Shown: positions 4,061-20,218, counted from the stretch's first letter. The stretch: 24,724 nucleotides of DNA from Syntrophomonadaceae bacterium (GCA_003558195.1 PWMM01000100.1:1-24724); one strand, 5' to 3'. Notes: generated by a model from the sequence alone, not told the origin. Numbers and translations are program-made.

Positions 4061-4251
4061 ATTTTATGATCTAATTCCTTTTTTAGCCTTTTAAAATAAG
4101 ACAATACAATTATGACTGTAATCAAACCATACGCACTTGTCATTATCTTTTATTCTTAACTAAAAGCTTAAAAATGCTAATTAGCAAAGCATAAACAAAG
4201 GATTTTATAACAATAGATAAGATAAATCATGTATTATTTTATATGTTTAAT

Positions 4252-4268
4252 GTTACAATAAAATTACA
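4252..4268 (-). promoter_or_regulatory. WalR (YycF)-type binding box TGTAAT-N5-TGTAAC
   Basis: Minus strand reads TGTAAT TTTAT TGTAAC, matching TGTWAH-N5-TGTWAH, about 190 nt upstream of and co-oriented with the M23 gene. Confidence 0.65.
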
Positions 4269-4433
4269 GTAAAGCCAAGTCTAAAAGTACAGAATCTCGT
4301 ATCAAGAAAACGCATCCTTAATTGAAGACATTTACACTGTTTTCATTTAGCTTTTCTTTATATAAATAGATGATGGAGTGGTTTTTTTGAAATGCTTAAA
4401 TAGCAATTTAATATATTGGAAAGGAGTGGTCTT

Positions 4434-5183
4434 ATGAGATCAAATAACATGGAAGAATGCCCGTATTGTAGAGAAAAAATAGACAGTAGTGATCCTAAAT
4501 GTCAATATTGTGATTCTATGCTCGATAATAATGATTCTTTTACGGGAGAGTCCGTAAGAAAAAAAAGGCCTGCCCAGAAGATTACCATTGTTAAATCTCC
4601 CAGGAAGAAATGGCTTTTATGGGTACCGGTGCTATTGATTCTAATTGTTTCTCTTGTCTTTTTAGGAGAATCATTAGCAACGCCTGATGACGATTTTACT
4701 GTAGCTGATGATGATGGTGAACTAATAGATGAGGATGCTGAAGAAAGCATTTTTGGAGATGATTTAGAAGTAACAGATCTTGATCAGCCCGGGAATGATC
4801 TAGAGGAAGCTGAATTTGCGGAAGATCTAGTAACAGTGGATTCTATAAATCGAAAATATGAACCTAAGTTTGAGGCTTTAGAAGATGAAATAACTGCTGA
4901 ACTAATCAAATTGTTTAATGCTGCGATGCAAGAATATGAACAGGCTAACGGGGGAGTTCTTTTTCAACTTCAACTGGTTAATAAATATATGAGAAAAGTG
5001 CGCCAAGTTGAAAGCAGGGCAGACGAAAGGTTTTATAAGATCCTCGACCAGATGGAAGAAGAATTGGTGGAGAACGATTTGTCTACCGCTATTATTTCTG
5101 AGTTAGAGGAGGACTACTTAAGAGATAAGCAGGAGAAAAAACGTGAGCTAACTAATTTTCTTCAAAATCCTAACCTCGACTAG
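4434..5183 (+). CDS. Hypothetical membrane protein: N-terminal zinc ribbon (CPYC...CQYC), one TM helix, acidic linker, helical C-terminal domain
   Basis: Two CxxC pairs; WLLWVPVLLILIVSLVFLG TM; D/E-rich tract. RBS GGAAAGGAG favours ATG 4434 over TTG 4416. Confidence 0.85.
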   Translation: MRSNNMEECPYCREKIDSSDPKCQYCDSMLDNNDSFTGESVRKKRPAQKITIVKSPRKKWLLWVPVLLILIVSLVFLGESLATPDDDFTVADDDGELIDEDAEESIFGDDLEVTDLDQPGNDLEEAEFAEDLVTVDSINRKYEPKFEALEDEITAELIKLFNAAMQEYEQANGGVLFQLQLVNKYMRKVRQVESRADERFYKILDQMEEELVENDLSTAIISELEEDYLRDKQEKKRELTNFLQNPNLD

Positions 5184-5290
5184 CTCGTTCAAAAAGGACT
5201 GGATCCATTAGCCGTGGAAATTGAAATGGCGGTATCTTGACTCCTTATCATAAAAAGGGGTTGACCAAAACTCTAAAGGAGGTACTGCCA

Positions 5291-5368
5291 GTGTCAGAAT
5301 GTCACAAGGCTATTGAACAGTTTACAGTTAAAAGTGATTGGATTTCTAAACTACAGGCCTTATATTGA
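5291..5368 (+). CDS. Possible 25-aa peptide (MSECHKAIEQFTVKSDWISKLQALY)
   Basis: Strong SD AAGGAGGT (5276-5283) 7 nt before GTG 5291; stop TGA 5366-5368. No family recognised. Confidence 0.4.
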   Translation: MSECHKAIEQFTVKSDWISKLQALY

Positions 5369-5503
5369 TAAACCGTTAGCGAAGCAGCGGGTTCTCTAAA
5401 AGATTGTTAAAAACTTGCACAGTGGTTTTTTCAGGATTAGAACATATCTTGCCATTTTAGGTAAGGCTTTTAGCCAGGGGCTTGATTTTATATTGCAAAA
5501 CAG

Positions 5504-6025
5504 GTGATGGAAATGGCTAAATCCGGTGAATATACGGTCAAAAGATTTCTGGAAAGCAAAAATCTAAGGGTAGAAAAAATTCCTGAAATAGATATCAAAA
5601 CGGCTGATTTCGAAGTCTATAATAACAATAAGTTGCTCTGCTTTTTAGAAGAAAAAACTATTGATTTCACCCTGCCTGTTTGGAATAACGAAATGGCTTT
5701 CTTTAATGCATTGGCTAAACATATTTATGAATCTATAAAACAGTTTAAAAGTATTAATCCCGGCAAAAAAGTTCCCAATGTATTGTCTTTAACAAACCTG
5801 GTTCCGGCCAGATCAATTAATGATTTATTCATTACACTAACCGGCCAGATCATAACTTCAAAAGGTAAACTGCGCTCTATTGATAACATGAAACGAGTTG
5901 AAAAAGATTTAGCACTCATTGATCTTTATCTCTGGTTTGATAATGATCAATATTCCGGCTACATTTGCGATGAAGAGCAATCTCCAATGGGAGAAAAAGT
6001 CGCCCGGGTGATGGGGCTTAATTAA
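5504..6025 (+). CDS. Hypothetical protein with PD-(D/E)XK nuclease-like motif
   Basis: E9...T-A-D35-F...E49-E-K51 pattern (numbered from GTG 5504). The real start may be ATG 5507 or 5513. Confidence 0.7.
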   Translation: MMEMAKSGEYTVKRFLESKNLRVEKIPEIDIKTADFEVYNNNKLLCFLEEKTIDFTLPVWNNEMAFFNALAKHIYESIKQFKSINPGKKVPNVLSLTNLVPARSINDLFITLTGQIITSKGKLRSIDNMKRVEKDLALIDLYLWFDNDQYSGYICDEEQSPMGEKVARVMGLN

Positions 6026-6034
6026 AGGAGATCT

Positions 6035-6646
6035 CTAATTGGGTTGATAATGTATATTATGCTCAAGAGAAGGATCTTGATCTTTTTGAAGATCCCACCA
6101 TTCACTTCCAAGGTTACTTTCATAAGTGATGCCAAACTCATTTTTAAGCCCTCTTATGATCTGGTTATAGCGGTTCATTAGCTCAACTTTTCTTTCCTGG
6201 TTGGCACTCTGATACTCTTCTTCGATTGCTTGTAAAGCCTCTTTGGCTTTCTTAACATTTTTATCTTCAGATGGATCTATACTTTTTTGATCTAAGCTAT
6301 CGTTGACTGAAGAGGTATCCATTGCCTGGAGGTTTTGGTTTTGGTCTTGATTTGCAACAGGTTCTTCATGATCATTAGCGGTGTTAATATCCGGGTCTGC
6401 TAATATTGTGGGTTGATCAAGATCCTGCTCAAGCGGTTCTTCTGAAAGTGACTCCAAGCTATCATTATAATCAGGTTCTATAACAGCACGGTGGCTCATG
6501 TGCAGCCAACCAGGGAGACCTCTCTTTGCATTAAAGCTTTCCAATTCTGAATTATTTGTTTGTTGATGATCAATAAAATCACAGCCGCCAGTTATGATTA
6601 GCATTATTAATAATAGTATATAACCCTTTTGCTTACATACAATCAT
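6035..6646 (-). CDS. Hypothetical putative lipoprotein
   Basis: RBS CAGGAG; basic then hydrophobic N-terminus ending ITGG-C (imperfect lipobox); low-complexity D/Q/E/N linker; C-terminal helical segment. Confidence 0.7.
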   Translation of the reverse strand: MIVCKQKGYILLLIMLIITGGCDFIDHQQTNNSELESFNAKRGLPGWLHMSHRAVIEPDYNDSLESLSEEPLEQDLDQPTILADPDINTANDHEEPVANQDQNQNLQAMDTSSVNDSLDQKSIDPSEDKNVKKAKEALQAIEEEYQSANQERKVELMNRYNQIIRGLKNEFGITYESNLGSEWWDLQKDQDPSLEHNIHYQPN

Positions 6647-6932
6647 AACGCTTTCTCCTGATTTTTAGAAAATAGGCATCGATTGTTTTTCAGGAAAGCA
6701 ACATCAAGACCAATTAAACTGAAGCTTATTAAAAAAATGGTCTCTTAATATGCATCAGTGGATTTTCAACGGGGTTTATTTCAATAAAAAATAACCCCTA
6801 TTAAAATACTTTTTTCTTAGAGTTGAAGCTAATAATAAATGCCTCTAGTTTTATAAATAGATGGTAGTATTTATTAAAGTGCAAATCGTTTAAATCATAT
6901 TAAGTAAAGAGATGCTCATTAATTTAGTACAA

Positions 6933-7052
6933 TTAATTCAGGATGTTTATGAGCCACTCAATAAAGTCAAATGCATCCCTGTAATCACAACCTGTTAAAA
7001 AAAGTGAACCGAACAGCAACACAAAAAATGCAAAATACCAGGTTTTATTCAT
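6933..7052 (-). CDS. 39-aa mini-lipoprotein (MNKTWYFAFFVLLFGSLFLTGC-DYRDAFDFIEWLINILN)
   Basis: Manually translated. GGAGG (7065-7061) 8 nt before ATG; canonical signal peptide II with LTGC lipobox; TAA at 6935-6933. Missed by the ORF track. Confidence 0.7.
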   Translation of the reverse strand: MNKTWYFAFFVLLFGSLFLTGCDYRDAFDFIEWLINILN

Positions 7053-7093
7053 TTTTCGTTCCTCCAGTTTATCTATTCTTAATCTTTATTTTA

Positions 7094-7117
7094 CTATAAA
7101 TGTGCTCACATTTATAG
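7094..7117. repeat. Perfect inverted repeat CTATAAATGTG-CT-CACATTTATAG (operator or stem-loop)
   Basis: 11-bp arms with 2-nt spacer, between the chrA2 stop (7150) and the mini-lipoprotein RBS. Confidence 0.8.
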
Positions 7118-7149
7118 CAGTAAACTTTTCTTATTTGAATTTATGATCT

Positions 7150-7680
7150 TTAACTAAAAACAAATCCTCCATAAATTAATGCTGCCAATAGAATAAAGCC
7201 TGGATGAATGTTGAATTTTTCTAAGCATAGTAAACTAATAAAGCCCATCAATATAGTATGCGCAAAACCGATTTGATTATATGAATCCTTTAAAAAGCTG
7301 TAAGCCATGATTGTGAGCATAACAGCAATAGCTGGTTAAACAAAAACTGTTAGCCTTTTCACACGAACGGAGTCTCTATACCGGTAGAGGATGCTTAAAA
7401 GTGCTATCATTAAAAGCAGTGAAGGTACAACAGTAGCTAGTAAGGCTACAATCCCTCCTGTTATCCCTCCTACTTCATAACCAATATATGCTGCCATTTT
7501 AGTAGCAATTGGACCCGGTAAAACATTTCCAAACGCCAGTGCTTCTCCAAATTCCACCCTGGTTAACCACCCATAACGGTGAACCACTTCATATTCTATT
7601 AAGGGGATTGCAGCCGGTCCGCCACCATATGCGATTATCCCCGGGATAAAAAAAGCAAGAAATATTTGCCAGTATATCAA
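7150..7680 (-). pseudogene. chrA: Short-chain chromate transporter (CHR), second subunit, interrupted by in-frame TAA at 7338-7336
   Basis: YGGGPAAIP and LPGPIATK motifs. Reading past the stop gives PAIAVMLTIMAYSF...NIHPGFILLAALIYGGFVFS* in the same frame, for a full-length 176 aa. TTG start overlaps the upstream TGA. Confidence 0.85.
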
Positions 7681-8249
7681 TTGCCTTGCACCTCACTGTT
7701 ATCTTTATACACAGGCCATAACAGGGCTCCCAGTATAATAAGTATAATAATTAGGCCTGGGTGGATATCAAAACTAACCATTAGTAGCAATGCTCCCCAA
7801 AAGATAGCGGAGCTTTTAAACCAGCCCATTTCCTTTAAAGATTGATTCATAAACTGGTATATTATTATACCCAGCATTACCCCAATAACTGGCGGAATAC
7901 TTTTTCTCATACCCTGCACCCAGGATAGGTCATGTAATGCTGCCATCGAAGTTAATAAAAATACAACTGCCAGGGCAGTGGGGAGTACCAGCGCGGATAC
8001 CGTGATCATAATTCCCAAAAGACCGGCTAGCTTCCATCCTATGTAACCCGCCATTTTTGTTGAAATTGGACCGGGTAAAGTATTACCAATGGCCAGGACA
8101 TCGTTAAATTCATCATCTGATATCCATTTTTTGTTATTTACTACTTCCAGGTAGACCAGGGGTATAAATGAAGGTCCTCCACCATAACCTAAAATTCCTA
8201 TTCTAAAGAAAGTCAAAAATAAAGATAAATAATGGTGTTTTTTCTTCAA
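7677..8249 (-). CDS. chrA: Short-chain chromate transporter (CHR), first subunit
   Basis: GILGYGGGPS, EFNDVLAIGNTLPGPISTKM, DIHPGLII; TTG start with GGAGG RBS. Confidence 0.92.
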   Translation of the reverse strand: MKKKHHYLSLFLTFFRIGILGYGGGPSFIPLVYLEVVNNKKWISDDEFNDVLAIGNTLPGPISTKMAGYIGWKLAGLLGIMITVSALVLPTALAVVFLLTSMAALHDLSWVQGMRKSIPPVIGVMLGIIIYQFMNQSLKEMGWFKSSAIFWGALLLMVSFDIHPGLIIILIILGALLWPVYKDNSEVQGN

Positions 8250-8280
8250 CGTAATCCTCCACTCAGGTTATGCTCAGTTA

Positions 8281-9888
8281 TTACCAGGCAGCTACTGTGC
8301 CATCAGCGCGTGGCTCACTGGCACCTATTAGAACATTATTGTCATCTTTCATAATTATTTGTCCTCGACCGAAACTTAAACTATCAATTGCCTCTTCTAC
8401 TTGATGTCCTCTTAAAGCTAGCTCTTTTTTGATGCTTGATGGTAAATCTTTTTCCACTATAATTTTGTTTCCTTTTAACCATTGCCATCTTGGGGCATCT
8501 AAAGCTTCCTGGGGATTCAGATTAAAGTCAACCAGGTTAGATACTACCTGTAGATGACCCTGGGGTTGCATAAAGCCTCCCATAACTCCAAATGGTCCGA
8601 TTGCTTTCCCATTTTTCGTTATAAAAGCGGGTATGATAGTATGATAGGGTTTTTTCCCAGGTTCAATAAAATTAACACTGTTATTATTTAATGAAAAATT
8701 GTTGCCCCTGTTATGTAAAGCAATGCCAGTATGAGGGACAACAATTCCCGATCCAAAACCCTGGTAGTTACTCTGGATATAAGAAACCATATTGCCTTTT
8801 GCATCTGCTGAACATAAGTAAACAGTGCCACCTTTTCGCTGATCGCTAATACCCAGATCTGCAGCTAGCTCGGTAATTGAAGCCCTTTTTTTTGCGGCAT
8901 AGCTTTCAGAAAGAATATAATCTAAATCCACAGTCATGTATTTTGGATCTGTGATATATTTTATCCCATCAGAAAAAGCATTTTTTAAGGCTTCAATTTG
9001 CAGGTGATAGGTTGAAATAGTCTCTTTTTCTTTTAAATCAAACCCGTTTAAAATATTGAGGCCTAGCAATGCTACCAGCCCATGGGTATTAGGAGGCATT
9101 TCCCAAATCTCATAGCCTTTATAGTTGATTTTAATGGGAGTTACCCACTCCGGGGAGTACTTTTCTAAATCAGCATATCTAATGAAACCGCTTTCTGATT
9201 TGGAAAAACTATCCATTTTTTCAGCTAAAGTTCCACGATAAAATGATTCCGCCCTGGTAGCTGCTATCTCTTTTAAAGTTCTGGCATGATCCTGAGATCT
9301 CCAAATTTCTCCAGGTTTCGGAGCTCTACCGGCAGGCGCAAAGATGTCGAACCAATTCTTTAAATATTCAGGTTGGCTTAGCGTATTAAATTTTTCATAT
9401 TCTCTTTCCCATAACATAGCGATAACTGGTGATACAGGAAAGCCATTAAAAGCATAATCAATTGCTGGTTTGAATAACTGCTCAAAAGGTAAAGTGCCGA
9501 ATTTTTTTGATAGTTCAGCCCAGGCTGAAGGGGTTCCAGGTACAGTTACGGGAATCCATCCTGTTTCCGGTATATCTTTAAAACCCTGCTTTTTAATAGC
9601 TTCAGCGTTTATCAGCCCTGGTGCCGGGCCGCTTGCATTTAAAGCAGACAATTTATTATTATTCCATACCAGGGCAAAGCTGTCTCCTCCTATACCGTTA
9701 GAGGTTGGCTCCACTACAGTTAAACAAACAGCAGTTGCTATAGCAGCGTCTATAGCATTGCCTCCCATTTTTAATATATCAAGCCCCGCCTGGGCTGCTA
9801 AAGGTTGAGAAGTACAAACCATGCCCTTGTTGCTGTAAACAACACTTCTTCTGGATGGATACTTGTATTGATTACTGTTGTAATTCAT
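8281..9888 (-). CDS. ggt: Gamma-glutamyltransferase family Ntn-hydrolase (YwrD/HpxW-like subgroup)
   Basis: SQPLAAQAG, GGNAIDAA, VVEPTSNGIGGD, autocleavage Thr in GG-TVYL, GGFMQPQG, EPRADG. RBS AAGGAG indicates a start at ATG 9888 or 9891, not 10005. Confidence 0.93.
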   Translation of the reverse strand: MNYNSNQYKYPSRRSVVYSNKGMVCTSQPLAAQAGLDILKMGGNAIDAAIATAVCLTVVEPTSNGIGGDSFALVWNNNKLSALNASGPAPGLINAEAIKKQGFKDIPETGWIPVTVPGTPSAWAELSKKFGTLPFEQLFKPAIDYAFNGFPVSPVIAMLWEREYEKFNTLSQPEYLKNWFDIFAPAGRAPKPGEIWRSQDHARTLKEIAATRAESFYRGTLAEKMDSFSKSESGFIRYADLEKYSPEWVTPIKINYKGYEIWEMPPNTHGLVALLGLNILNGFDLKEKETISTYHLQIEALKNAFSDGIKYITDPKYMTVDLDYILSESYAAKKRASITELAADLGISDQRKGGTVYLCSADAKGNMVSYIQSNYQGFGSGIVVPHTGIALHNRGNNFSLNNNSVNFIEPGKKPYHTIIPAFITKNGKAIGPFGVMGGFMQPQGHLQVVSNLVDFNLNPQEALDAPRWQWLKGNKIIVEKDLPSSIKKELALRGHQVEEAIDSLSFGRGQIIMKDDNNVLIGASEPRADGTVAAW

Positions 9889-10383
9889 CATTTCTCCTTT
9901 TAAAGCATTATTATTTGCTTCCTTGAGCATTATTTTACTTCTAATACGGCGCCGGTTGGTTCTCTTGAACCCTGCTTGAAGTGTGATGAACATTAAACAA
10001 ATCAAGGAGTTACTTTCAGCCTGTTTTTACCATATTATTTTGTCCATAGTTTGACTTGTAATATTCGCGAAGGGGAAAAAATATCCTGCAGGAAAAAGAT
10101 TGTTCTTTCATCAAGGAGGTGATCCTTTAAAAAAGCAAGCAAGGAGTTAGTCTTTATTCACTAAGCAATGATCAGGCAATAAAAAAGCTAAAGACATTCT
10201 GCCAGAATCTAAAAGCTTATTCTTAATCTTATTATCTGCTATTTACACGGCTGGCATCAACTCTTTAGATCTAAAACTATCAAAAATGAAAGCTGTTTTT
10301 GTACAGATTTCCCCGTCCAGGTAAAAATAGTATTTAACTGGGTCTTGTTTTAACTCATTATAGCAGCCGAAGCAGACCTAGGT

Positions 10384-10842
10384 TTATTTAACTGTTAAAA
10401 CACTACAGTTTTTTGACTCCTGGACTACTGCACTACTAACGCTTCCAAGGAATATTTTTTGTAAACCGCTACGTCCCCTGCTACCTATGACAATGGTATC
10501 AAAACCATCTTCACTTGCTGTTTTTACAATAGTATCTGCCGGGCGCCCTTCTTTTAAAATTGTCCGTGCTTTGATATTTTTTCTTTCTAAATAATCCTGG
10601 GCATCTTCTAAAATTTTATTTGCTTCTTTTTTATTTTCTTCAAGTATAGTTTTGAAATTTTTCATATCTTCTTCAGTTGGAGCATAGGCTTCTCCACGGG
10701 GTAGCGCAGAAAGGTTTACGCTTTCATCATAAACATGAATAATGCCTACTTCATCCACATTACATCCTTCTGCAAGTATTGCTGCTTTTTCTAATGCTTT
10801 TTTACTGTGCTGCGAGCCATCTGTGCAAACTAAAATCTTCAT
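10384..10842 (-). CDS. Universal stress protein (UspA family)
   Basis: KILVCTDGSQHSKKAL, G-x-P-A-D-x-I, IVIGSRGRSGLQKIFLGSVS. RBS AAAGGAGTG before ATG 10842. Confidence 0.95.
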   Translation of the reverse strand: MKILVCTDGSQHSKKALEKAAILAEGCNVDEVGIIHVYDESVNLSALPRGEAYAPTEEDMKNFKTILEENKKEANKILEDAQDYLERKNIKARTILKEGRPADTIVKTASEDGFDTIVIGSRGRSGLQKIFLGSVSSAVVQESKNCSVLTVK

Positions 10843-11047
10843 GATATTATCACTCCTTTTACCGGTTAATTGCCTGGAAATATCAAAACCTTTCAAATAT
10901 ATTTTACCATAAAAATAACAATTTATGCTGATATTCAAAATCTTAGCCCTGATCTAGTATAATAAAGCTATAAAGAAGAACCAGGCAAAATATGTATGTT
11001 CTAAAAGAGTGTTCGAATTTTCAATTGGAAAGGAGTATAGATAATTT

Positions 11048-11638
11048 ATGAAGTTTCCATGTAAGCTTGCAATCCTTATTTTCGATGAGGTTGAAGTGCT
11101 TGACTTTTGCGGCCCTTTTGAAGTTTTTTCCATAACAAAAGACAACCATGGGCAAAGTCCTTTTGAGGTAATGATTGTGGCAGAGGATAACACCCCGGTA
11201 TTAGCAAGAAACAATTTAAGTATAAACCCTCAATACACCATTAAAAATTGCCCGAAACCGGATATTATTTTAATTCCTGGAGGACCTGGAACACGTAAAG
11301 AATTATATAATGATACCTTAATTGGCTGGATAAAATCTATTTCTTTGGCCAGTCAACTAACTTTAACTGTATGTACCGGGTCATTATTGCTGGGAAAAAC
11401 AGGTTTACTAGATCATATGGAAATAACTACTCATCACGGGGCATTGGATTTATTAAGAGAAACAGCACCAAAAGCTGAAGTTAGGAGCGATGTAAGATTC
11501 ATTGACAATGACCGGTATATTACGGCAGCGGGCATATCTGCCGGTATTGATATGTCTTTATACGTTGTAGGAAAACTACTTGGCCGGGATATTGCTGAAA
11601 AAACAGCATCTTATATGGAATATAATTGGACGGGTTGA
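11048..11638 (+). CDS. DJ-1/PfpI family protein (InhA/GlxA-N-like, no AraC domain)
   Basis: EVEVLDFCGPFEVF, IPGGPG, nucleophile Cys in TVCTGS, TAAGISAGID. Confidence 0.93.
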   Translation: MKFPCKLAILIFDEVEVLDFCGPFEVFSITKDNHGQSPFEVMIVAEDNTPVLARNNLSINPQYTIKNCPKPDIILIPGGPGTRKELYNDTLIGWIKSISLASQLTLTVCTGSLLLGKTGLLDHMEITTHHGALDLLRETAPKAEVRSDVRFIDNDRYITAAGISAGIDMSLYVVGKLLGRDIAEKTASYMEYNWTG

Positions 11639-11705: not shown

Positions 11706-12005
11706 TCATCCCCCGGCTGCTGGAGGGAAAATGCTGACCCTGTCTCCTTCCTCCAGGATTGAAGAGAGGCCCTTTAGCTGCCTGATGTTAAAGCCATTAA
11801 CAAGGATCGTTAAATCGGTCTTGTTATGACTGCCAAAAAGGGTCAGGGTGGCACTCCCTATGGTGAGCTTTTCCGGTATGCCGTAATCGCGGCATAAAAC
11901 CCGGAGCAGCTCCATAACTGTTGCATCTTCCGGCAGTTCTACTATTATATAATCTGACCCCAGTGAATCTCTCAGGAAAAGGTATGCTTTTACTGTTACC
12001 TGCAC
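11706..12005 (-). CDS. moaD: MoaD/ThiS-family ubiquitin-like sulfur carrier
   Basis: 99 aa, ILVNG...LEEGDRVSIFPPAAGG with C-terminal Gly-Gly; downstream of AOR on the same strand. Confidence 0.88.
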   Translation of the reverse strand: MQVTVKAYLFLRDSLGSDYIIVELPEDATVMELLRVLCRDYGIPEKLTIGSATLTLFGSHNKTDLTILVNGFNIRQLKGLSSILEEGDRVSIFPPAAGG

Positions 12006-12113
12006 GGGGTCACACCCCCGGTTTTTATTCTATGCTTGCCATAATAAGTTGCAGCGTTAACCGGCTCTATCTCACCTTTTGCACCGGTTTTGTTGTTGTT
12101 TTCAGGAATCAGT

Positions 12114-13799
12114 TTAATCCTTCATTTTCTTCAGTTCCTCTTCTCGAAGCTGCTTTTTATAGATTTTTTCTGTTACGGTAAATGGCAGGTCCTGGCGGAA
12201 TTCTACCTGGCGGGGTACGGCATAAGATGCGCATTTGTCGCGGCAAAACTCAATGATTTCTTCTGCCGTTACTGTTTCTGTGTAATCATCCTTGAGCACT
12301 ACATAAGCTTTGATCCTTTCACTGCCTGCCCGATCAGGATCCGGGATCCCGATGGCTGCAGCCATTGATACAGCGGGGTGCTGATAAAGGATGTCATCGA
12401 TAGTGCTGGTATAAACTTTGAAGCCGGACACATTGGCCATATCTTTGATCCGGTCGACGATATAAAAATAGCCGTCTTCGTCCATACTGACAATGTCACC
12501 CGTGGGTAACCAGCCGTTGATCAGGCCGGAACCTGCTTCGGGCCAGTATCCCTTCATCACCTGCGGTCCCTTTATGTACATGTGCCCCGGTTCACCCTGC
12601 GGGCATTCGCTCCCGCTTTCTTCATCGATCAGCTTCACATCAGTATCTGGAACCGGCAGGCCGATGCTGTATTTTTGCCTGGCGGAAAAACCGGTAATTT
12701 TAGAAAACCCGCTCAAATCAAGGTGGGTCAGGGGGCTGGTTTCTGTCAGGCCATATCCTTCAGTAACCGGCATTTTGATCTTGGCGGTAATCGTTTCCCT
12801 CACTTCCAGGGGCAGGTAAGAAGCCCCGGACAGGATCTGGATCGGCAGGCGGGGCAGGTCTTTTTCGCTTAATTTCATCAGCTGGGTTGGGACCAGGGCA
12901 GTCAGGAAGGGGCGGTTTTCCACCAGGATTCTGGCAATTTCATCTAGGTCTCTGGGGTCGCGGACCAAAATCAGTTTAAGGCCCCAATAGATCCCAAAAA
13001 GGGCCGCGGCATCGCCGTAGGAGTGGAAGAGGGGAACCCCCAGGCAAAGTGAAGCCTTTCCGCGTATCGATTTTTCCAGGTTAGCCATAGCCCAGGCCAT
13101 CGATTGCAACACATTGGAGTAGCGGTTGAAGTGGGTGAGCATAACGCCCTTGGGAATCCCGGTAGCGCCGCCGGTGAAGGCCAGGTAGGCCAGGTCACTC
13201 CGAGGATTTATCTCAACCTGCGGGGGCCGGGAATCGTGGTTCTCAATTAAAGTTATTAAATCGTAGATCCCTTCCGGTACCTCCCGGTGATTTTCTTCAG
13301 CAGCGGTATAATCGGTAAGGGATGTGGTTATGATCTGCCGGATCCTGGTTTCAGGTTTTAAGGCCAGGATTTTATCAGCCTGCTCCCGGAGGCAGATCAC
13401 GGTTTCTGCTCCTGATTCGCCAATCTCATATGCCAGTTCCCTTTCTGTGTGCAGAATGCTGCAGGGAACATGGGTCGCCCCTGCTTTAAGGAGCCCGAAG
13501 TTGGCAATAATGTACTGGGGAGAGGTGGGCAGGATAGTGGCTACCTTGTCGCCCTTTTTAACCCCGAATCCAGCCAAGGCACAGGCCAGCCTGTCGGTAT
13601 AATCTTTAAGTTCATTATAGCTGATTTTCACCCCGCAATACTCAATAGCCTGGGAACGGGGATGCTTTTCAGCTGACTGGTCGAGCATGCTAAACAGGGG
13701 CAGCTCAGGATAAGGTTCCAGGCTTTGGGCTAATTTATAAGGGCCCAGCTTGTAACTTTTCAGCCAGGGCCTTTTTTGTTCTATTTCGCTCAAAGTCAA
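12114..13799 (-). CDS. AMP-forming acyl-CoA synthetase (long-chain-fatty-acid--CoA ligase/FadD-like)
   Basis: P-loop FTGGATGIPKGVMLTH, EGYGLTETSP, TGDI...DEDGYFYIVDRIKD, terminal Lys in PFTVTEKI. TTG start 11 nt after the AOR stop, with AAGGGGGT RBS. Confidence 0.93.
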   Translation of the reverse strand: MTLSEIEQKRPWLKSYKLGPYKLAQSLEPYPELPLFSMLDQSAEKHPRSQAIEYCGVKISYNELKDYTDRLACALAGFGVKKGDKVATILPTSPQYIIANFGLLKAGATHVPCSILHTERELAYEIGESGAETVICLREQADKILALKPETRIRQIITTSLTDYTAAEENHREVPEGIYDLITLIENHDSRPPQVEINPRSDLAYLAFTGGATGIPKGVMLTHFNRYSNVLQSMAWAMANLEKSIRGKASLCLGVPLFHSYGDAAALFGIYWGLKLILVRDPRDLDEIARILVENRPFLTALVPTQLMKLSEKDLPRLPIQILSGASYLPLEVRETITAKIKMPVTEGYGLTETSPLTHLDLSGFSKITGFSARQKYSIGLPVPDTDVKLIDEESGSECPQGEPGHMYIKGPQVMKGYWPEAGSGLINGWLPTGDIVSMDEDGYFYIVDRIKDMANVSGFKVYTSTIDDILYQHPAVSMAAAIGIPDPDRAGSERIKAYVVLKDDYTETVTAEEIIEFCRDKCASYAVPRQVEFRQDLPFTVTEKIYKKQLREEELKKMKD

Positions 13800-13810
13800 A
13801 ACCCCCTTTT

Positions 13811-15673
13811 CTAGCTCCAGAGTTTATCGGAAACGTCTTCCAGGCCGAGTTCTTTTAACTTCGCCGCTGCCGGTTTACCAGTTTCCCGGTCCCATCCCCT
13901 GAGGTGGTAGTAACGCTCCAGCAGCACGGGAAGATCATTGACCTGTCCTTCTGCCGGTCCTTCCGGCAGGGGATCTTCCAGGAGCCGCTTTGGCAGCGTA
14001 TCATCTTTAGGAGTGAGCCCTTCACGGCTGCAAAAAGCCCGGGCCAGGTTGTAAACTCGTTCTCCCGCTTTTTTGTACTCTTCCAGGGTATAATCCCAAC
14101 CGGTGGCCAGGTTGACCAGTTCCACCCAGTCTGCGGCACTGATGCACAGCCCCATAAATTTACAGGCTCCAATGCAGTCGAAAGAGGTGAGCATATCTTC
14201 GAGATCAACGGCAATTTTTACTTCATCAGGATCGGCGGCGAAGGGGTCCTTGATTTCACTTTCTTCAACGATCAGGAAGGGGGCATCCACAAAAGTGGGT
14301 CCCTGCACATAGGCAGTGATATGATCGCCGCCCCGGTTGGCAGTTGCGTAAGTTAAACCGGTTAGCTGCACGGCCCTGCTGTCGTAAGCCGGAAGTTCCA
14401 GGCCTTTCACGTGCATGGCAAAGGCTTCGCTGCCCTGGCCCAGTTTTTCTGACATTCTTTTTGTTCCCTCTGCCAGGAGGTCGCCAATACCTTCACGCCG
14501 GGCAACCAGGTGGACCAGGTCGACAATTAAGTCAGGATTACCGAAATTTAGCTCCAGCCCGCCTGTGTCCTCAGCTGTCAGGATCCCTTTCTCGTAGCAT
14601 TCCATGGCAAAAGCGAAGGTGCTCCCCGCTGAAATTGTGTCCAGGCCATAATCGTTGCAGAGGTATCCAGCCATGGTGATGGCTTCCAGGTCGTTTACAG
14701 CGCACATGCCGCCAAAAGTCCCTACGGTCTCGTATTCCGGGCCTTCCCCCTTGTGCCCGGCGTACTTGCCTTCCCGAATTTCTGTTCCCCGCCCGCATTC
14801 GATGGGGCAGGCAAAGCAGGTCACGTTTTTTGTGAGGATTTTATCGGAAATGGCCGGGCCGTTAATATCCTCGGCGTCTTCAAAGATCCCGGTTTGCCAG
14901 TTTTTGGTTGGAAAGCCGCCCCTGATGCTGACCAGGTCTAAGACCACACTGGTCCCAAATGCCTGCAGGGACATCTTAAACATGGAATCGTCCATCAGTT
15001 CATACTGTTTCCTGGAATGAGCCTTGAATTGATCAGGATCAAAGATGGTGAGAGGTTTGCTGCCCCTTACGGCTATAGCTTTTAGTTTTTTTGAGCCCAT
15101 CACGGCCCCGAGGCCGCAGCGGCCGGCGGCGCGCCCCAGGTCGTTCATGATCGCTGCATACTGGACCAGGTTTTCCCCGCCCGGTCCGATACAGGCAATA
15201 TTAAATTTATCTCCCATTTCTTCTTTAATTGCTGCAGTTGTTTCCGGAACATTCAAACCCCAGAGATGGGAAGCGTCTTTTACCTCAACCTTATTGTCAT
15301 CCACTGCCAGGTAGACTGGATGAGGAGATATGCCTTCAAATATAACTCCATCGTAACCGCTTTTTTTAAAATCGACCCCCCAGCGGCCCCCGGAGTTGGC
15401 CTGGCCCCAGATTCCTGTCTGCGGTGATTTTGCGACCACGCTGAAACGGCCAGTACTGGGCGCGACAGCCCCGGTGAGACTACCAGTCATAAAAATTAAC
15501 TTGTTTTCTTCACCTAACGGGTCCGCTTTTGCCGGCACCTCATCCCACAAGTAGCGGGTGGCCAGCCCGGCGCCTCCCAGGTATTTTTTATAATCATCTG
15601 CTGGGACATCTTCTTTCTTAGCCGTACCGCTGTTCAGGTTGACCCTGAGTATCTTTCCATGGCAGCCGTACAA
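13811..15673 (-). CDS. aor: Aldehyde:ferredoxin oxidoreductase family (tungstopterin/4Fe-4S) enzyme
   Basis: GRAAGRCGLGAVMGSKKLKAIAV, CFACPIEC (CxxCxxxC), EGPEYET, GLDTISAG, VKGLELPAYDSR, RGGDH, GACKF. GGAGGT lies 7 nt before TTG 15673 (track start GTG 15682 overlaps the RBS). Confidence 0.96.
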   Translation of the reverse strand: MYGCHGKILRVNLNSGTAKKEDVPADDYKKYLGGAGLATRYLWDEVPAKADPLGEENKLIFMTGSLTGAVAPSTGRFSVVAKSPQTGIWGQANSGGRWGVDFKKSGYDGVIFEGISPHPVYLAVDDNKVEVKDASHLWGLNVPETTAAIKEEMGDKFNIACIGPGGENLVQYAAIMNDLGRAAGRCGLGAVMGSKKLKAIAVRGSKPLTIFDPDQFKAHSRKQYELMDDSMFKMSLQAFGTSVVLDLVSIRGGFPTKNWQTGIFEDAEDINGPAISDKILTKNVTCFACPIECGRGTEIREGKYAGHKGEGPEYETVGTFGGMCAVNDLEAITMAGYLCNDYGLDTISAGSTFAFAMECYEKGILTAEDTGGLELNFGNPDLIVDLVHLVARREGIGDLLAEGTKRMSEKLGQGSEAFAMHVKGLELPAYDSRAVQLTGLTYATANRGGDHITAYVQGPTFVDAPFLIVEESEIKDPFAADPDEVKIAVDLEDMLTSFDCIGACKFMGLCISAADWVELVNLATGWDYTLEEYKKAGERVYNLARAFCSREGLTPKDDTLPKRLLEDPLPEGPAEGQVNDLPVLLERYYHLRGWDRETGKPAAAKLKELGLEDVSDKLWS

Positions 15674-15827
15674 TTGTAACACCTCCAGATTTTTTTTGGT
15701 TCCCGGAAATCAAAAGTTGCATGAATTGTGTGAGCTTGTAAAATGAAAAGACGATTTATTTAAATATACAGCTTATAGTGGGAAAAAACAACTATATTTT
15801 TGCGAAAACACTAATATATTATTAAAT

Positions 15828-15864
15828 TGCTATAATTATATACTTTCAATTTACTGTTAAACAA
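15828..15864. promoter_or_regulatory. Overlapping divergent sigma-A-type promoters around palindrome TATAATTATA
   Basis: + strand extended -10 TGcTATAAT (15828-15836); - strand TTGTTT (15864-15859), 18 nt, TATAAT (15840-15835). Confidence 0.55.
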
Positions 15865-15970
15865 GGTATACTCTAATCAGTATGCAGCGATTATTTAAGC
15901 CTGTTTCTCTTTGATAATATTACTTTTAAAGAGACAAGCGGTACAATAATACATATAAGGGGTTGATACA

Positions 15971-16552
15971 GTGGAGAGTAATAATCTTGCAGAATTTGCT
16001 TATGGGAGTGAAGAATGGGAAAAAGCATACCGGGAGATGGTTGAAAAACGTCTGGCGAAAGTAGAACCACCTTTTGCAATGGGTTCACCGGAGTGGGTGG
16101 ACGCTTTTGAAAAGAACATTCAGGAAGATGAACTGTACAAGAAGGTGGCAAAAAAATGGGAAGGAACTGTAGTAATTCACATCCTGGGCGATCCGGCCAT
16201 TGGCCTAGATGGCGATATTTTTATGCTAATGGATCTATGGCATGGCGATTGCCGTTCGGTCAGGTTGGTGCCTGAGGAAACGGGGAAAAATGCAGACTAT
16301 GTGTTAACCGGTAATTTTGAAAGATGGGAGTCGGTGTTAAAAAAAGAACTTGATGTAGTTAAAGCAATGATGCAGGGTAAAATCAAACTTAAGGGCTCAC
16401 TACCGGTAATTGTACGCTTTGTGAAAGCCTGTGTTCGCCTGGTTGAACTTGCTGCCGGCATTGATACCCGGTTCCAAACTGAAATGAGTGAGCAAGAGCG
16501 TGAAGCTTTCAAGGAGTGGTTTAACGAATTAAGAGCCAGGTTTGGGTTTTAA
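15971..16552 (+). CDS. SCP2 (sterol carrier protein-2) lipid-binding domain protein with N- and C-terminal extensions
   Basis: MDLWHGDCR, ADYVLTGNFERWESVLKKELDVVKAMMQGKIKLKGSL is the typical SCP2 C-terminal pattern; GTG start with AAGGGG RBS. Confidence 0.85.
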   Translation: MESNNLAEFAYGSEEWEKAYREMVEKRLAKVEPPFAMGSPEWVDAFEKNIQEDELYKKVAKKWEGTVVIHILGDPAIGLDGDIFMLMDLWHGDCRSVRLVPEETGKNADYVLTGNFERWESVLKKELDVVKAMMQGKIKLKGSLPVIVRFVKACVRLVELAAGIDTRFQTEMSEQEREAFKEWFNELRARFGF

Positions 16553-16838
16553 TACAATTAATGTTTGCTCAGCTTTACCTAATTTTGAATTGGTGATGGC
16601 TCATCGTGGGAAATGGTAGCTACTCAGCTTCAGCCTTTAGCTTTGTTTGCCTTCGACATTAGCCATCTCTTTTTCTGGTCTCGGCAGCCTGCTTCCATGC
16701 AGACTGACCAGCTACAACCTTTGTTTCATAGGCATTGCAACTGCTCTAGCGAAATGTCCCCTGTCTAAAATCAAGCACGGTTGAGCAGATAAAACCTCAT
16801 TAAAGTTCTTCAATTAAATTAGGAGGAGGATTACTGGA

Positions 16839-18002
16839 TTGTCATACAACCGCGATCTGGCTTTTGAATATAACAACCCGACCAAAATTATCTTTGGTGA
16901 GAATAGTGTTAAAGAAATCGGCCTGGAAGTGGAAAGGCTTGGCGGCTCAAAAGCTTTAATTGTGACCGATCAAGGGCTAGTTCAAGCCGGCCTGGCGGAA
17001 AAGATAGAGAAAGCACTGGGCAGGCGCTATGTTGGAACATACGATGGCTGTCTTCCAGATTCAGGTTTCCACCTGGTTGATGAAGGCGCGGCCTTTGCCC
17101 TGGAAAAGGGAGCCGATATCCTGGTTAGTGTGGGTGGAGGAAGTGTTATTGATACGGCTAAGGGCATGGCCGTGGTTTTGAAAGAAGGGGGGACAATCAG
17201 TGATTACCGGGGCATGCAAATGCTGACCCGTCCCCAGACACCTCATATTGCTGTTCCCACAACCGCAGGAAGCGGCAGTGAGGTGACCTGGTTTGCCGTA
17301 ATCAAGGACTGGGATAACAATGTCAAGGAAGCTTTTCTTGATGTCCACCTCATTCCGGATTTGGCCATCCTGGATCCGCACATGGTTACCGGCCTTCCCC
17401 CTCACCTGACTGCGGGTCCGGGAATGGATGCTTTTTCCCACGCCATAGAAGCATTTCACTCCCTGCAGCGGCAACCGATCAATGACGGTTTGTCCTTGCA
17501 GGCAGTCAGGCAGATTAAAGAGTATTTGCCCCGCTGTATTGAAGATGGCTCAGACCTGGTTGCCCGTGGTCAGCAGCAGCTGGCAGCCACCATGGCTGCT
17601 ATCGCGTTTAGCAACAGCCAGCCGGGCCTGGTTCATGCCATGGCTCACCCGCTTGGGGCGCTCTTTAAAGTGCCGCACGGGCTTGCCAACGCTATCTTGC
17701 TCCCCCATGTCATGCTTTTTAACATGCCTGAGTGCGCCGACAGGTATGCCCAGGTTGCGCAGGCCATGGATCTTGATGTGCGGGGGTTAAGAGATGAAGA
17801 AGCGGGCAAGGCCGCCGTGCAGGCTATTCAAGACTTAATTGAAAAGATCGGGTTGCCCCGGAAGCTACGTGATGCCGGTGTCCCTGTAGACAGGCTGGCT
17901 GAAGCTGCCGATTATTCCCTGGCCGATGGTTCTATTTTCTATAACCCGCGCATGGTGACAGAAATAGAGGAAGTTTTAGAAGTTTACCAGGCAGCCTGGT
18001 GA
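16839..18002 (+). CDS. Iron-containing (class III) alcohol dehydrogenase
   Basis: VGGGSVIDTAK, VPTTAGSGSEVT, AILDP, metal ligands in DAFSH, H in VHAMAH and PHG; TTG start with AGGAGGAGG RBS. Confidence 0.95.
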   Translation: MSYNRDLAFEYNNPTKIIFGENSVKEIGLEVERLGGSKALIVTDQGLVQAGLAEKIEKALGRRYVGTYDGCLPDSGFHLVDEGAAFALEKGADILVSVGGGSVIDTAKGMAVVLKEGGTISDYRGMQMLTRPQTPHIAVPTTAGSGSEVTWFAVIKDWDNNVKEAFLDVHLIPDLAILDPHMVTGLPPHLTAGPGMDAFSHAIEAFHSLQRQPINDGLSLQAVRQIKEYLPRCIEDGSDLVARGQQQLAATMAAIAFSNSQPGLVHAMAHPLGALFKVPHGLANAILLPHVMLFNMPECADRYAQVAQAMDLDVRGLRDEEAGKAAVQAIQDLIEKIGLPRKLRDAGVPVDRLAEAADYSLADGSIFYNPRMVTEIEEVLEVYQAAW

Positions 18003-18018
18003 TGGTGTAATTAAATTG

Positions 18019-18483
18019 TTATCCATGCCCTGCCAGATCGAATTTAAATTTTGGGATTTGCTGATCGGGATTCAGGGATGATCTTACCAGCCCTGTTTGG
18101 ATTGCGCCCATTTTCAAATAGAAAGGCAGCGCTTTGGGATATGTGATACCTTCGAGGGTTTTGAAACCTTTTTCCTGGCACATAACTACCAGGTGTTTCC
18201 AGAGTTTCCTGCCCACGCCACAGCCGATCAGGTCTCGCCTCACATAAAAATGTTCCAGCCGGGCAGTGTTGCCTGCGGCTTTGATGTTGAAAAAAGCTGT
18301 GATGTTTTTTTCGTCGCTGCAGGTTAAAACACGTACGCTGTTTTCTACCAGGGTGGCTCCGGTTAGTTGATACCTGGTGGCAAACCTGGCCATCACCGCT
18401 TTGCTGTGGCCCCAGTACGCTTCTGATTCGTAAGCCAGCTGGTTCAGAATTCTTAAATCATCCGGTTGGGCGGGCCTGATAAT
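18019..18483 (-). CDS. GNAT N-acetyltransferase, probable non-canonical ATT start (154 aa)
   Basis: Frame extends upstream of GTG 18396 as I-IRPAQPDDLRILNQLAYESEAYWGHS; no ATG/GTG/TTG before the upstream TGA; GGGAGG 7 nt before ATT 18483. Motif A FYVRRDLIGCGVGRKL and ALPFYLKMGA present. Confidence 0.8.
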   Translation of the reverse strand: MIRPAQPDDLRILNQLAYESEAYWGHSKAVMARFATRYQLTGATLVENSVRVLTCSDEKNITAFFNIKAAGNTARLEHFYVRRDLIGCGVGRKLWKHLVVMCQEKGFKTLEGITYPKALPFYLKMGAIQTGLVRSSLNPDQQIPKFKFDLAGHG

Positions 18484-18526
18484 AGCTATTCCTCCCTGTT
18501 TTCACTATGTATACTATACCTGGCTT

Positions 18527-20218
18527 TTACTTTTCCAAATGCTGGCAAAAGTAGAGGGGTCCGGCCAGCAGGGCTTTGCCATCTTTCAAGTTTGCCATGT
18601 TTATAAGGGCATGCTCAGCCCATGCTGCTGCCGTGGGTAGTGGGGCTGTTTCCTGTCTCGGAAGCGGAATCTCTACCAGTGGAACATTCTCGGGAAGATC
18701 TGCTTCTTTATGCAATATGGCCAGCGCGGTTTCCAGGCCGCCCAATTCGTCAACCAGGCCTTTAGAGAGGGCCTGTTCTCCGGTCCAAACTTTTCCACCC
18801 CCGACTTCTTTTACTGCTTCAGCCTGCAAAGCCCGGCTTTCTGCCACCCGTTTGATAAATAGCTCGTATACATGAAAGATGAAGTCCAATGCTTTTTTTC
18901 TTTCTTCTTCATTAAATAGTTCTTCCGGTGAACCAAATAATTCTTTTTGGCCCCGCCTGATCGTTTCCCGGTTTAAAAGTAGCTTATCCAAAAGCTGGGC
19001 ATTAACGATCTTGGCGGCAATTACCCCGATAGAACCGGTGAGGGTAGCCGGCTGGGCGATTATATAGGGGGCGGGAGTGGCTACATAATAGCCACCGGAT
19101 CCAGCTATGGAGCTCATCATCGCTACTAAAGGTTTCCGAGCGGCAATTTTGCCCAAAACTGCGGTGATCGCTTCCGAAGCTGCTGCCGAGCCGCCGCCTG
19201 AATCGATATATAGTAATACAGCTTTCACTCTTTTGTCTTTGAGAGCCATGCGGGCTTGCTGAACAAAACTAAGATCACCGGTCTGGTCATTGAAGAGGAA
19301 GGGCGCGGGAACTGGTGGCCTGGACGGTGAGCGGCGGCTCTTACCGTCAATAATATTGCCCTGGACCCTGAGGAGGGCAATGTAGCGGCCTGGTCGGGGC
19401 GGTAAGGGCCTGGGGAAGCATTTTTTGCACTCATCCCATGCAGCCAATCTGGCCGGTTTTTCTTCGCCGAGGTAGGAGGGGAGGTCTTCAGCATTGATGA
19501 TGCCATCAACAGCGCCGGTATCTAAGGCTTTTTCACCGTAAAGAGGAGTCTGGCCGATTAATTCCTGGACCTTGTCTTGTCCGAGGTTGCGGCCATTGGC
19601 AATAGCTTTTACAAATTGGCTATAATATGAATCAAGGAGCCATTCGGTCATTTCCCTGACCTGTTCAGACATTTTGGATCGTACAAACCTTTCCAGCGCG
19701 GATTTATATGGGCTGACCTGGACCACGTCCAGTTCGATACCTAAGTGCTCGAGAGCATTCTTCAGGTACAACTGGCGGTTTGTGAAGCCGAGGGTATAGA
19801 TTATGCCGCCTTCCTGGAGGAGGACCCGGTTACAGGCAGCAGCCAGGCAGTAAGTGGATGAATCATAACCGGTGGACCAGGCAATTACCTCCTTGTTTTT
19901 TGATTGGATTTCCCGGATCGAACTGTTCAGGGTCTGGATCTGGGCCAGGGTGAGTTCAGGTTTACCCAGGTGTAGAATTATTCCTTTTACCCGGGGATCT
20001 TTTGAAACTGTCCGAAAGTCATCAGCCAGTTCCTGCAGACTTTTAGCCCTGGCGATCATTCTTCTCTGTAGAATGCTCTCCGGGGGTGTTTTCAAATCTG
20101 GATACGAACCGTGCAAAGTAAAGGTAACATATTCTGGTGGGCGCAGCCCTTTTTTCAAGATGTTAGCCAGCCATACCAGGAAAATGCGAATCAAATAGAT
20201 AGGATAGGCGATCAGCAT
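18527..20218 (-). CDS. sppA: Signal peptide peptidase SppA (S49, two-domain long type)
   Basis: Catalytic Lys motif PYKSALE in the N-domain; IDSGGGS, nucleophile AGSGGYY, TLTGSIGV and GKVWTGEQA in the C-domain. Confidence 0.92.
   Translation of the reverse strand: MLIAYPIYLIRIFLVWLANILKKGLRPPEYVTFTLHGSYPDLKTPPESILQRRMIARAKSLQELADDFRTVSKDPRVKGIILHLGKPELTLAQIQTLNSSIREIQSKNKEVIAWSTGYDSSTYCLAAACNRVLLQEGGIIYTLGFTNRQLYLKNALEHLGIELDVVQVSPYKSALERFVRSKMSEQVREMTEWLLDSYYSQFVKAIANGRNLGQDKVQELIGQTPLYGEKALDTGAVDGIINAEDLPSYLGEEKPARLAAWDECKKCFPRPLPPRPGRYIALLRVQGNIIDGKSRRSPSRPPVPAPFLFNDQTGDLSFVQQARMALKDKRVKAVLLYIDSGGGSAAASEAITAVLGKIAARKPLVAMMSSIAGSGGYYVATPAPYIIAQPATLTGSIGVIAAKIVNAQLLDKLLLNRETIRRGQKELFGSPEELFNEEERKKALDFIFHVYELFIKRVAESRALQAEAVKEVGGGKVWTGEQALSKGLVDELGGLETALAILHKEADLPENVPLVEIPLPRQETAPLPTAAAWAEHALINMANLKDGKALLAGPLYFCQHLEK

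Follow-up and report, generated by a model that had tools for sequence, protein, structure and literature searches.

Linked genes for an iron-type alcohol dehydrogenase, an SCP2-fold protein, an aldehyde:ferredoxin oxidoreductase and a CoA ligase: a candidate anaerobic alcohol-to-acyl-CoA module in a Syntrophomonadaceae genome

Five neighbouring genes on a contig of a Syntrophomonadaceae bacterium (GCA_003558195.1, PWMM01000100.1:1-24724; these 24,724 nucleotides are called the window in what follows) encode a ThiS/MoaD-type protein, an AMP-forming acyl-CoA ligase, an aldehyde:ferredoxin oxidoreductase (AOR), an SCP2-fold protein and an iron-type alcohol dehydrogenase (Fe-ADH, or ADH). Do they serve one pathway? 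An earlier note on this DNA had proposed that they do, oxidizing and activating a poorly soluble alcohol or aldehyde with SCP2 as shuttle. We consider it on balance probable that the five genes are one functional unit, an unusually complete local version of a conserved anaerobic module leading from alcohol through aldehyde and acid to acyl-CoA. The linkage of the genes, on which the proposal leaned, held up (synteny in many orders, three kinds of gene fusion, intact catalytic motifs); the lipophilic substrate, shuttling by SCP2 and the direction of flux are matters of interpretation.

A Pfam scan agrees with the five genes and domains described before. Three lie on the minus strand: the ThiS/MoaD-type gene at 11706-12005 (ThiS, E 1e-10), the FadD-like ligase of 561 aa at 12114-13799 (AMP-binding, E 1e-77, and AMP-binding_C) and the AOR of 620 aa, of the AOR sensu stricto type, at 13811-15673 (AFOR_N, E 8e-83; AFOR_C, E 6e-141). 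On the plus strand are the SCP2-fold protein of 193 aa at 15971-16552 (SCP2, 38.4 bits with a cutoff of 21.3) and the iron-type (group III) ADH of 387 aa at 16839-18002 (Fe-ADH, E 2e-47; ADH_Fe_C, E 2e-54). The 11-nt gap reported between the AOR and ligase genes was confirmed (13800-13810), and moaD lies downstream of the ligase gene at a spacing of 108 nt. The AOR reading frame can extend to a GTG at 15682; its start was corrected to the TTG at 15673 because this codon is preceded by a ribosome-binding site, GGAGGTG, and its product, which begins MYGCHGK, aligns from residue 1 of the Pyrococcus furiosus AOR structure 1AOR. Counted from this homology-supported start, the divergent gap between the two arms, previously put at about 300 nt, is 297 nt.

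Recurrence of these genes elsewhere carries the argument. With SCP2, 23 genome loci were found, 22 of them evaluable since one contig ends right after SCP2; the ADH gene follows SCP2 in 20 of the 22, usually after 20-50 nt. The divergent AOR arm of the window type is found in loci L001-L005, L010 and L011, and a second AOR type, co-oriented (AOR-MoaD-SCP2-ADH or AOR-SCP2), in L013, L016 and L021. The order in Ca. Solincola (Actinobacteriota) is SCP2-ADH-small SCP2-AOR, then DUF35/thiolase pairs. A metagenome scan with the SCP2 alignment, its loci annotated with a panel of proteins of established families, added 80 loci, down to about 36% identity. Some contigs are short: L005 and L075 end inside the AOR, and L073 and L080 stop too early to show an ADH. 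SCP2 and Fe-ADH adjoin in 30 of the 43 metagenome loci with room for an ADH, and of the 21 metagenome loci with long flanks, 16 have the ADH after SCP2 and 15 have an AOR no more than three genes away.

The linkage of SCP2, ADH and AOR spans Bacillota, Actinobacteriota (Ca. Solincola) and a Chloroflexota-labelled metagenome-assembled genome (MAG), with the module genes in at least five orders, including AOR-SCP2-ADH-SCP2s, SCP2-ADH-SCP2s-AOR, SCP2-AOR and acyl-CoA dehydrogenase...AOR-SCP2-ADH. An SCP2 with the motif DLWHGxCR lies directly upstream of an Fe-ADH, with an AOR a few genes away, in the window, L001-L004, L010, L011, L024-L026 and many of L072-L149. The pairing is also sealed by fusions: P0275 is a single SCP2-FeADH-small SCP2 protein of 717 aa whose ADH part shares 46% identity with the window ADH, and in P0323 the partner of SCP2 is a zinc-type ADH domain. 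The SCP2-FeADH pair being near-constant and fused, and an AOR standing beside it in most well-flanked loci, the earlier note was right to join the two divergent arms. Recurrent neighbours of the module elsewhere are thiolase, acyl-CoA dehydrogenase, enoyl-CoA hydratase and family III CoA-transferase, and further DUF35/thiolase and 2-oxoacid:ferredoxin oxidoreductase genes.

The other junction, between AOR and ligase, recurs as well. A search with the AOR part of the two joined window genes, admitting long candidates, identified about 45 proteins of about 1210 aa with the domains AFOR_N, AFOR_C, AMP-binding and AMP-binding_C, most of them named Thorarchaeota or Hodarchaeota by their sources. 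The AOR halves of these Asgard fusions are 57-61% identical to the window AOR. Aligned in full, the window ligase shares 48% identity with the ligase half of P0127, a closer match than any ligase in 300 sampled genomes of the window's own phylum (best match at most 44%). Each half is the nearest relative found for its window counterpart, AOR or ligase, and the order of the two is the same. The neighbours of the fusion include a ThiS/MoaD gene and a 149-aa SCP2 of the same family that keeps its His and Cys (hhalign 99%); no Fe-ADH was found within 7 kb in the locus examined. Unfused operons of AOR, ligase, a 164-aa SCP2-like protein (hhalign 98.5%) and MoaD are found in other bacterial contigs, one of which has a second AOR and SCP2 pair adjoining.

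A maximum-likelihood tree was built from 41 AORs chosen largely for SCP2 linkage, with no characterized enzymes among them, and it shows relatedness among these rows rather than placement in the full family. The window-type AORs, those of split operons and SCP2-AOR loci, and the fusions form one clade (support 100/100), and AORs found with SCP2-ADH elsewhere form a second. Both clades and a few others make up a 95/94 group that leaves the other AOR copies of the host MAG outside. Identities of 37-41% had suggested that three independent AOR lineages were recruited beside SCP2-ADH; the tree gives two related clades excluding the paralogues, and the better reading of it is an old AOR-SCP2 association, later rearranged.

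Judged by its recurrence in many loci and as gene fusions, the gene arrangement is not chance, and because other organisms carry the parts joined in one polypeptide, it is very probable that they act together. The full set of AOR, ligase, SCP2 and Fe-ADH is confined to a narrow clade (the window, L001-L004, L010, L011 and L072-L080, mostly soda-lake Dethiobacteria-like genomes), so that synteny of the whole was not broadly conserved; what is broadly conserved is two overlapping sub-modules, SCP2-ADH-AOR and AOR-ligase-SCP2-MoaD, which by comparison of gene orders the window merges. Its distinctive feature is that all four activities stand together as separate genes.

The proteins themselves appear catalytically intact. 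The nearest solved structure to the window AOR is 1AOR (E 3e-161; residues 1-612 align to 1-602), followed among solved relatives by two further AORs and Aromatoleum AorB. In the 1AOR alignment the window protein keeps the three clustered Cys and the fourth Cys of the [4Fe-4S] site, Glu313, His448 and both Asp of the pterin loops (1AOR numbering), residues whose roles we take to be those in 1AOR. Motifs aligned with each other are CFACPIECGR and CYACPIGCGR, GACKF and GLCLF, and CNDYGLDT and CDELGLDT, and GPEYE and NRGGDHI are conserved. The module AOR is a putative tungsten enzyme of the tungsten/molybdenum AOR family. Domain scans of the window found no partner genes of the Aromatoleum type, AorA (Fe-S) or AorC (FAD). 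The MoaD/ThiS protein of 99 aa ends in ...AAGG, with the terminal Gly-Gly, and passes the model TIGR01687 moaD_arch (53.2 bits, cutoff 49.5). A ThiS-family gene adjoins the AOR also in L021, L153, L154 and L156, and the protein probably assists with the tungstopterin cofactor that the AOR needs.

The Fe-ADH shows the dinucleotide loop GGGS and the motifs MDAFSHAIE and HAMAHP...HG, which supply an Asp/His/His/His metal site if, as we assume, the residue roles are those of FucO. Its relatives in the PDB are the ADH domain of AdhE-type proteins, methanol dehydrogenases, 1,3-propanediol oxidoreductase (DhaT) and FucO, and it reaches no NCBIfam equivalog cutoff.

In the ligase the motifs TGGATGIPKG (phosphate loop), GYGLTE, TGD, DRIKD and TEKIYKK can be read, so that by the motif definitions of the ANL superfamily the phosphate loop, the hinge Asp and the C-terminal Lys are present, and its stretch NGWLPTGDI...VDRIKD resembles the fatty-acyl-CoA synthetase signature. 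The top NCBIfam models are long-chain-fatty-acid--CoA ligases at 330-350 bits, all below their cutoffs, and no long-chain FadD equivalog cutoff is reached (best 351 bits with 705 needed; FadD PRK08974, 320 with 884). Solved 4-coumarate, feruloyl and fatty-acyl ligases match about equally, so E-values do not separate the acid classes. Adjacency to an AOR was also sought for the next-best ligase homologues and found for none in the 300 genomes of the window's phylum.

The SCP2 protein was modelled with AlphaFold (predicted local distance difference test, pLDDT, 92.9; predicted template-modelling score, pTM, 0.88) as an SCP2 fold extended by a further helix at either terminus. Its first Foldseek match is the SCP2 of Thermus thermophilus, 2CX7 (template-modelling score, TM, 0.92 by target); after it come SCP2s from yeast, insects and humans, then UbiJ and the SCP2 domain of an alkylsulfatase, and the top 45 matches are all SCP2 proteins or domains. 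A profile search of 1.8 billion representatives returned 981 clusters at E up to 0.001, of which 31 are at 1e-30 or better. By these comparisons the window SCP2 is a member of a sharply defined, highly conserved subfamily of normal length 187 aa. Twenty-nine members from several phyla are 50-82% identical to it, with 50-56% identity retained across phyla, and 30 columns are invariant, including WEG, DLWHG[DE]CR and QGKxKLKG; DLWHGxCR occupies residues 88-95, its His being residue 91 and its Cys residue 94.

Part of the gap between the arms is itself conserved. Among six loci whose AORs are 74-93% identical, long invariant runs within the 297-nt gap are confined to a non-coding block of 125 nt at 15755-15879. 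It holds a promoter-like minus-strand match, TTAACA-17-AATTAT, at 15860-15832 and a plus-strand one, TTTCAA-17-TATACT, read by eye, at 15844-15872. Because the block is near-invariant while the proteins diverge to 74%, and hexamers point in both directions, we infer that it is a candidate shared control region of both arms, through which they may be co-regulated. Transcripts in one soda-lake metatranscriptome amount to two contigs of <200 nt, which by their 94-97% identity come from relatives.

The spacing of the plus-strand arm is peculiar to the window: 286 nt separate SCP2 from ADH, versus 20-50 nt in relatives, because about 237 nt (16557-16793) are inserted after the stop codon of SCP2, ahead of the ribosome-binding site of ADH. 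Delimited by alignment to L001, L002 and L010, this insertion is specific to the window and absent from the 91%-identical L001 and the other orthologous loci. A riboswitch and a mobile element were both considered for it and rejected: it has no Rfam match, a folding z-score of -0.37, no better than shuffles, a single copy in the MAG and no credible open reading frame (ORF).

What chemistry would unite these parts? The most economical is alcohol to aldehyde to acid to acyl-CoA. The Fe-ADH would oxidize an alcohol to the aldehyde, the AOR the aldehyde to the acid with reduction of ferredoxin, and the FadD-like ligase would convert the acid to acyl-CoA for beta-oxidation, genes for which are present elsewhere in the MAG. 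The SCP2-fold protein would partner the ADH, and probably the AOR too, by binding either a substrate of low solubility or the reactive aldehyde, and MoaD would serve maturation of the AOR cofactor. An oxidative direction fits because an AMP-forming ligase fused behind an AOR suits activation of an acid after aldehyde oxidation. Three features hint at a poorly soluble substrate: the fold of SCP2, the FadD-like character of the ligase and the recurrent beta-oxidation genes nearby. The modelled fold, similar to fatty-acid and sterol carriers, would suit a carrier role for SCP2.

Several observations weigh against this reading. The 286-nt spacer loosens the operon in the window. The closest characterized relatives of the Fe-ADH use short alcohols, and 4-coumarate and feruloyl-CoA ligases are among the solved structures closest to the ligase, by which an aromatic substrate would be equally possible. 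The window-type ligase is found at only 3 of the 21 long-flank loci, and the AOR is absent from a sizeable minority; related genomes, moreover, are non-independent samples. Finally, the conservation of SCP2 is far above that usual for a non-specific lipid carrier, with a polar His and Cys invariant, which may point to a role more specific than passive lipid carriage.

The relatives of the ADH suggest an alternative in which AOR and ADH interconvert acetate, acetaldehyde and ethanol, or C2-C5 compounds, while SCP2 and ligase are accessory or unrelated. Genome papers on Dethiobacteria-like and serpentinite Actinobacteria read aor and adh as acetate-to-ethanol genes only (PMC7325909, PMC11932165), the usual assumption for Wood-Ljungdahl anaerobes. 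The likeness of the ADH to FucO, DhaT, methanol dehydrogenase and AdhE domains agrees with it, as does the breadth of P. furiosus-type AORs, a matter of general knowledge. It leaves unexplained, however, the near-constant SCP2 partner and the SCP2-ADH fusions; the ligase fused to AORs is FadD-like, not Acs-type; and some eight other AOR copies in the MAG, two with an Fe-ADH of their own, could serve small aldehydes. We judge short-chain substrates unlikely.

Aromatic or phenylpropanoid substrates seem improbable to a like degree. Cinnamyl- or benzyl-type alcohols, for example, would pass through aldehyde and acid to aryl-CoA, and SCP2 would bind the hydrophobic ring compound. In favour of this, the solved structures most like the ligase are 4-coumarate-CoA ligase (E 3e-54) and feruloyl-CoA synthetase, and it is generally known that AORs, those of P. 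furiosus and Aromatoleum included, oxidize aromatic aldehydes well. NCBIfam nevertheless places fatty-acid ligase models first (the 330-350 bits given above), the recurrent neighbours are generic beta-oxidation genes, and no ring-reduction gene was found among the neighbours scanned with Pfam or the reference panel, in which most neighbouring ORFs are unannotated.

The same enzymes could run in reverse, as the earlier note allowed: the AOR would reduce an acid to the aldehyde with low-potential ferredoxin and the ADH would form the alcohol, as an electron sink or as a source of fatty alcohols, with SCP2 removing the product. AOR-dependent acid reduction is, as a matter of general knowledge, established in acetogens and P. 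furiosus strains, and the alkaline habitats are rich in H2. But an AMP-forming CoA ligase fused behind an AOR makes most sense with the acid as product of the AOR, and the beta-oxidation neighbours point to catabolism; we regard a reductive module as quite unlikely. That the two arms are neighbours by ancestry only, sharing no function, is very improbable and on present gene orders and fusions seems largely refuted already: the full set is restricted to related genomes, and in other Dethiobacteria SCP2-ADH lies without an AOR beside mtnP-mtnA-surE-rtcB or a PBP gene, but the linkage persists through repeated rearrangement, spans phyla and is sealed by fusions, and with about nine AORs in a 2-Mb genome we estimate that chance adjacency to a given gene is a few percent at most.

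Returning to the oxidative alcohol-to-acyl-CoA module, a stronger form of it would be a physical assembly line of ADH, SCP2, AOR and ligase, with SCP2 not a passive lipid shuttle but a dedicated carrier that passes the aldehyde from the ADH to the tungsten site. The invariant His-Gly-x-Cys of SCP2 could bind the aldehyde, for instance as a hemithioacetal, and so prevent release of the reactive intermediate, and the ligase would trap the acid as acyl-CoA. We think this unlikely; if true, it would be a new kind of aldehyde channelling mediated by a carrier protein.

How does the module compare with known systems? The window AOR resembles 1AOR and other single-subunit AORs in its full-length alignment, cluster Cys, Glu313, His448 and pterin loops. 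The clade to which it belongs differs in that an acyl-CoA ligase comes after the AOR, either as a separate gene or within one protein, and SCP2-family genes keep it company; no description of this was found for characterized AORs. Two-step routes of AOR and ADH, such as acetate-to-ethanol conversion in acetogens and ethanol oxidation in syntrophs, handle the triad of alcohol, aldehyde and acid with ferredoxin and NAD(P) as carriers. They use the same two enzyme families as the window module but have neither a carrier protein nor a dedicated FadD-like ligase, whereas the module has SCP2 and a ligase that is AOR-fused in relatives. TT1886 of T. thermophilus HB8 (1WFR, 2CX7) is of the same SCP2 subfamily (profile E 1e-27), sharing WEG and LDLWHGxCR, but at 130-143 aa it has neither of the terminal helices (N and C) seen in the 187-193 aa form. 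The SCPx thiolase, MFE-2, UbiJ/UbiT and the C-terminal domain of SdsA1, which are among the structural matches, likewise place an SCP2 fold beside or within an enzyme for a water-insoluble substrate; these domains are 14-20% identical to the window SCP2, none partners an ADH or a tungsten enzyme, and the invariant His-Gly-x-Cys is specific to the window's subfamily. With Escherichia coli FadD-type synthetases the window ligase has in common the ANL fold, the P-loop and GWLxTGD...VDRxKD, but it scores far below family cutoffs (351 vs 705 bits), and aromatic-acid ligases score equally. The uncharacterized Asgard AOR-AMP-ligase fusions come closest in layout, with the parts in the same order and MoaD and an SCP2-family gene alongside; there AOR and ligase are one protein rather than 11 nt apart, and the locus examined is the one lacking an Fe-ADH within 7 kb. 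Full-text literature searches found no relevant account linking AOR or tungsten enzymes to SCP2 or a sterol carrier protein.

Few redox enzymes of anaerobes are as numerous as AORs or as poorly understood, and what they act on physiologically is mostly guesswork. The module would give one AOR clade a concrete job, that of oxidizing alcohols or aldehydes, perhaps of fatty, isoprenoid or aromatic kind, anaerobically into CoA metabolism with reduction of ferredoxin, in Bacillota, Actinobacteriota, a Chloroflexota-labelled MAG and Asgard archaea. In anoxic sediments, soda lakes and serpentinizing systems the module could bear on the turnover of lipids and waxes, and it could offer parts for biocatalysis in the interconversion of acids, aldehydes and alcohols of poorly soluble compounds.

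No contig of the host MAG (2.02 Mb, 44% GC, 78% complete) is longer than the window. The MAG has about nine AOR paralogues, on contigs C148, C44, C100, C5, C1, C119, C180, C179 and C203 (L032-L040). Two adjoin other Fe-ADHs, that on C119 (with a 2-hydroxyacid dehydrogenase, a short-chain dehydrogenase/reductase (SDR) and a tripartite ATP-independent periplasmic (TRAP) transporter) and that on C179. The paralogue on C44 adjoins an aminotransferase, that on C148 a TRAP transporter, and that on C100 is AorABC-like, with Pyr_redox_2 and Fer4_11 neighbours. In another kind of fusion, archaeal proteins of about 830 aa (P0173-P0178, P0186-P0198 and others), whose hosts are named Methanomethylicaceae or Nezhaarchaeota by the sources, join an AOR to a C-terminal PF00215 domain with PF02581, PF04131 or PF00977. 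These domains are typical of 3-hexulose-6-phosphate synthase and orotidine-monophosphate (OMP) decarboxylase-like enzymes, and the fusion may be a formaldehyde-linked AOR.

Members of the SCP2 subfamily are found in other company too. P0335 and P0306 are fused to a ferritin-like di-iron domain (a weak match to the ribonucleotide reductase small chain) and P0293 has a methyltransferase domain, which hints that this type of SCP2 is a portable enzyme partner. In an Actinobacteria MAG (L027/L028) a 185-aa member lies amid electron-transfer flavoprotein (ETF) alpha and beta subunits, CCG-domain proteins, three FAD_binding_4 oxidases and an SDR; this cluster also holds a second small SCP2 and a TetR regulator, and is without ADH or AOR. 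A separate small SCP2 of about 135 aa, as might follow the ADH, was not found in the 78%-complete host MAG, where queries matched only the large SCP2 of the window.

In digester-type Dethiobacteria (L007, L014, L015, L018-L020, L029-L031, L083) SCP2-ADH follows a conserved run of genes for an mtnP-like phosphorylase, an mtnA-like isomerase, an amidohydrolase, SurE and RtcB. The methionine-salvage neighbours (mtnP, mtnA, MTA-deaminase-like) were considered as a clue to a methylthio-acetaldehyde reductase and set aside, as SurE, RtcB and unrelated genes intervene and there is no aldolase. This linkage is seen only in closely related genomes and probably reflects shared ancestry; a link of the run to reduction of methylthio- or deoxy-sugar aldehydes may exist.

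The nearest relatives of the window are MAGs labelled Syntrophomonadaceae, Dethiobacter or Bacillota, some from soda-lake sediment according to the source, and window DNA is present in soda-lake and salt-lake metagenomes. By Pfam, a GNAT gene follows the ADH on the opposite strand. On the other side, a plus-strand gene at 11048-11638, convergent with moaD, encodes a DJ-1/PfpI protein of 196 aa that matches the N-terminal domain of FtrA/GbdR-type AraC regulators (92 bits) without their DNA-binding domain. GC content is 48-54% across the module and its right-hand neighbours (12000-20000) and 32-40% in the left-hand hypothetical genes (4000-11000); given the genome mean of 44%, one or both stretches may have been acquired.

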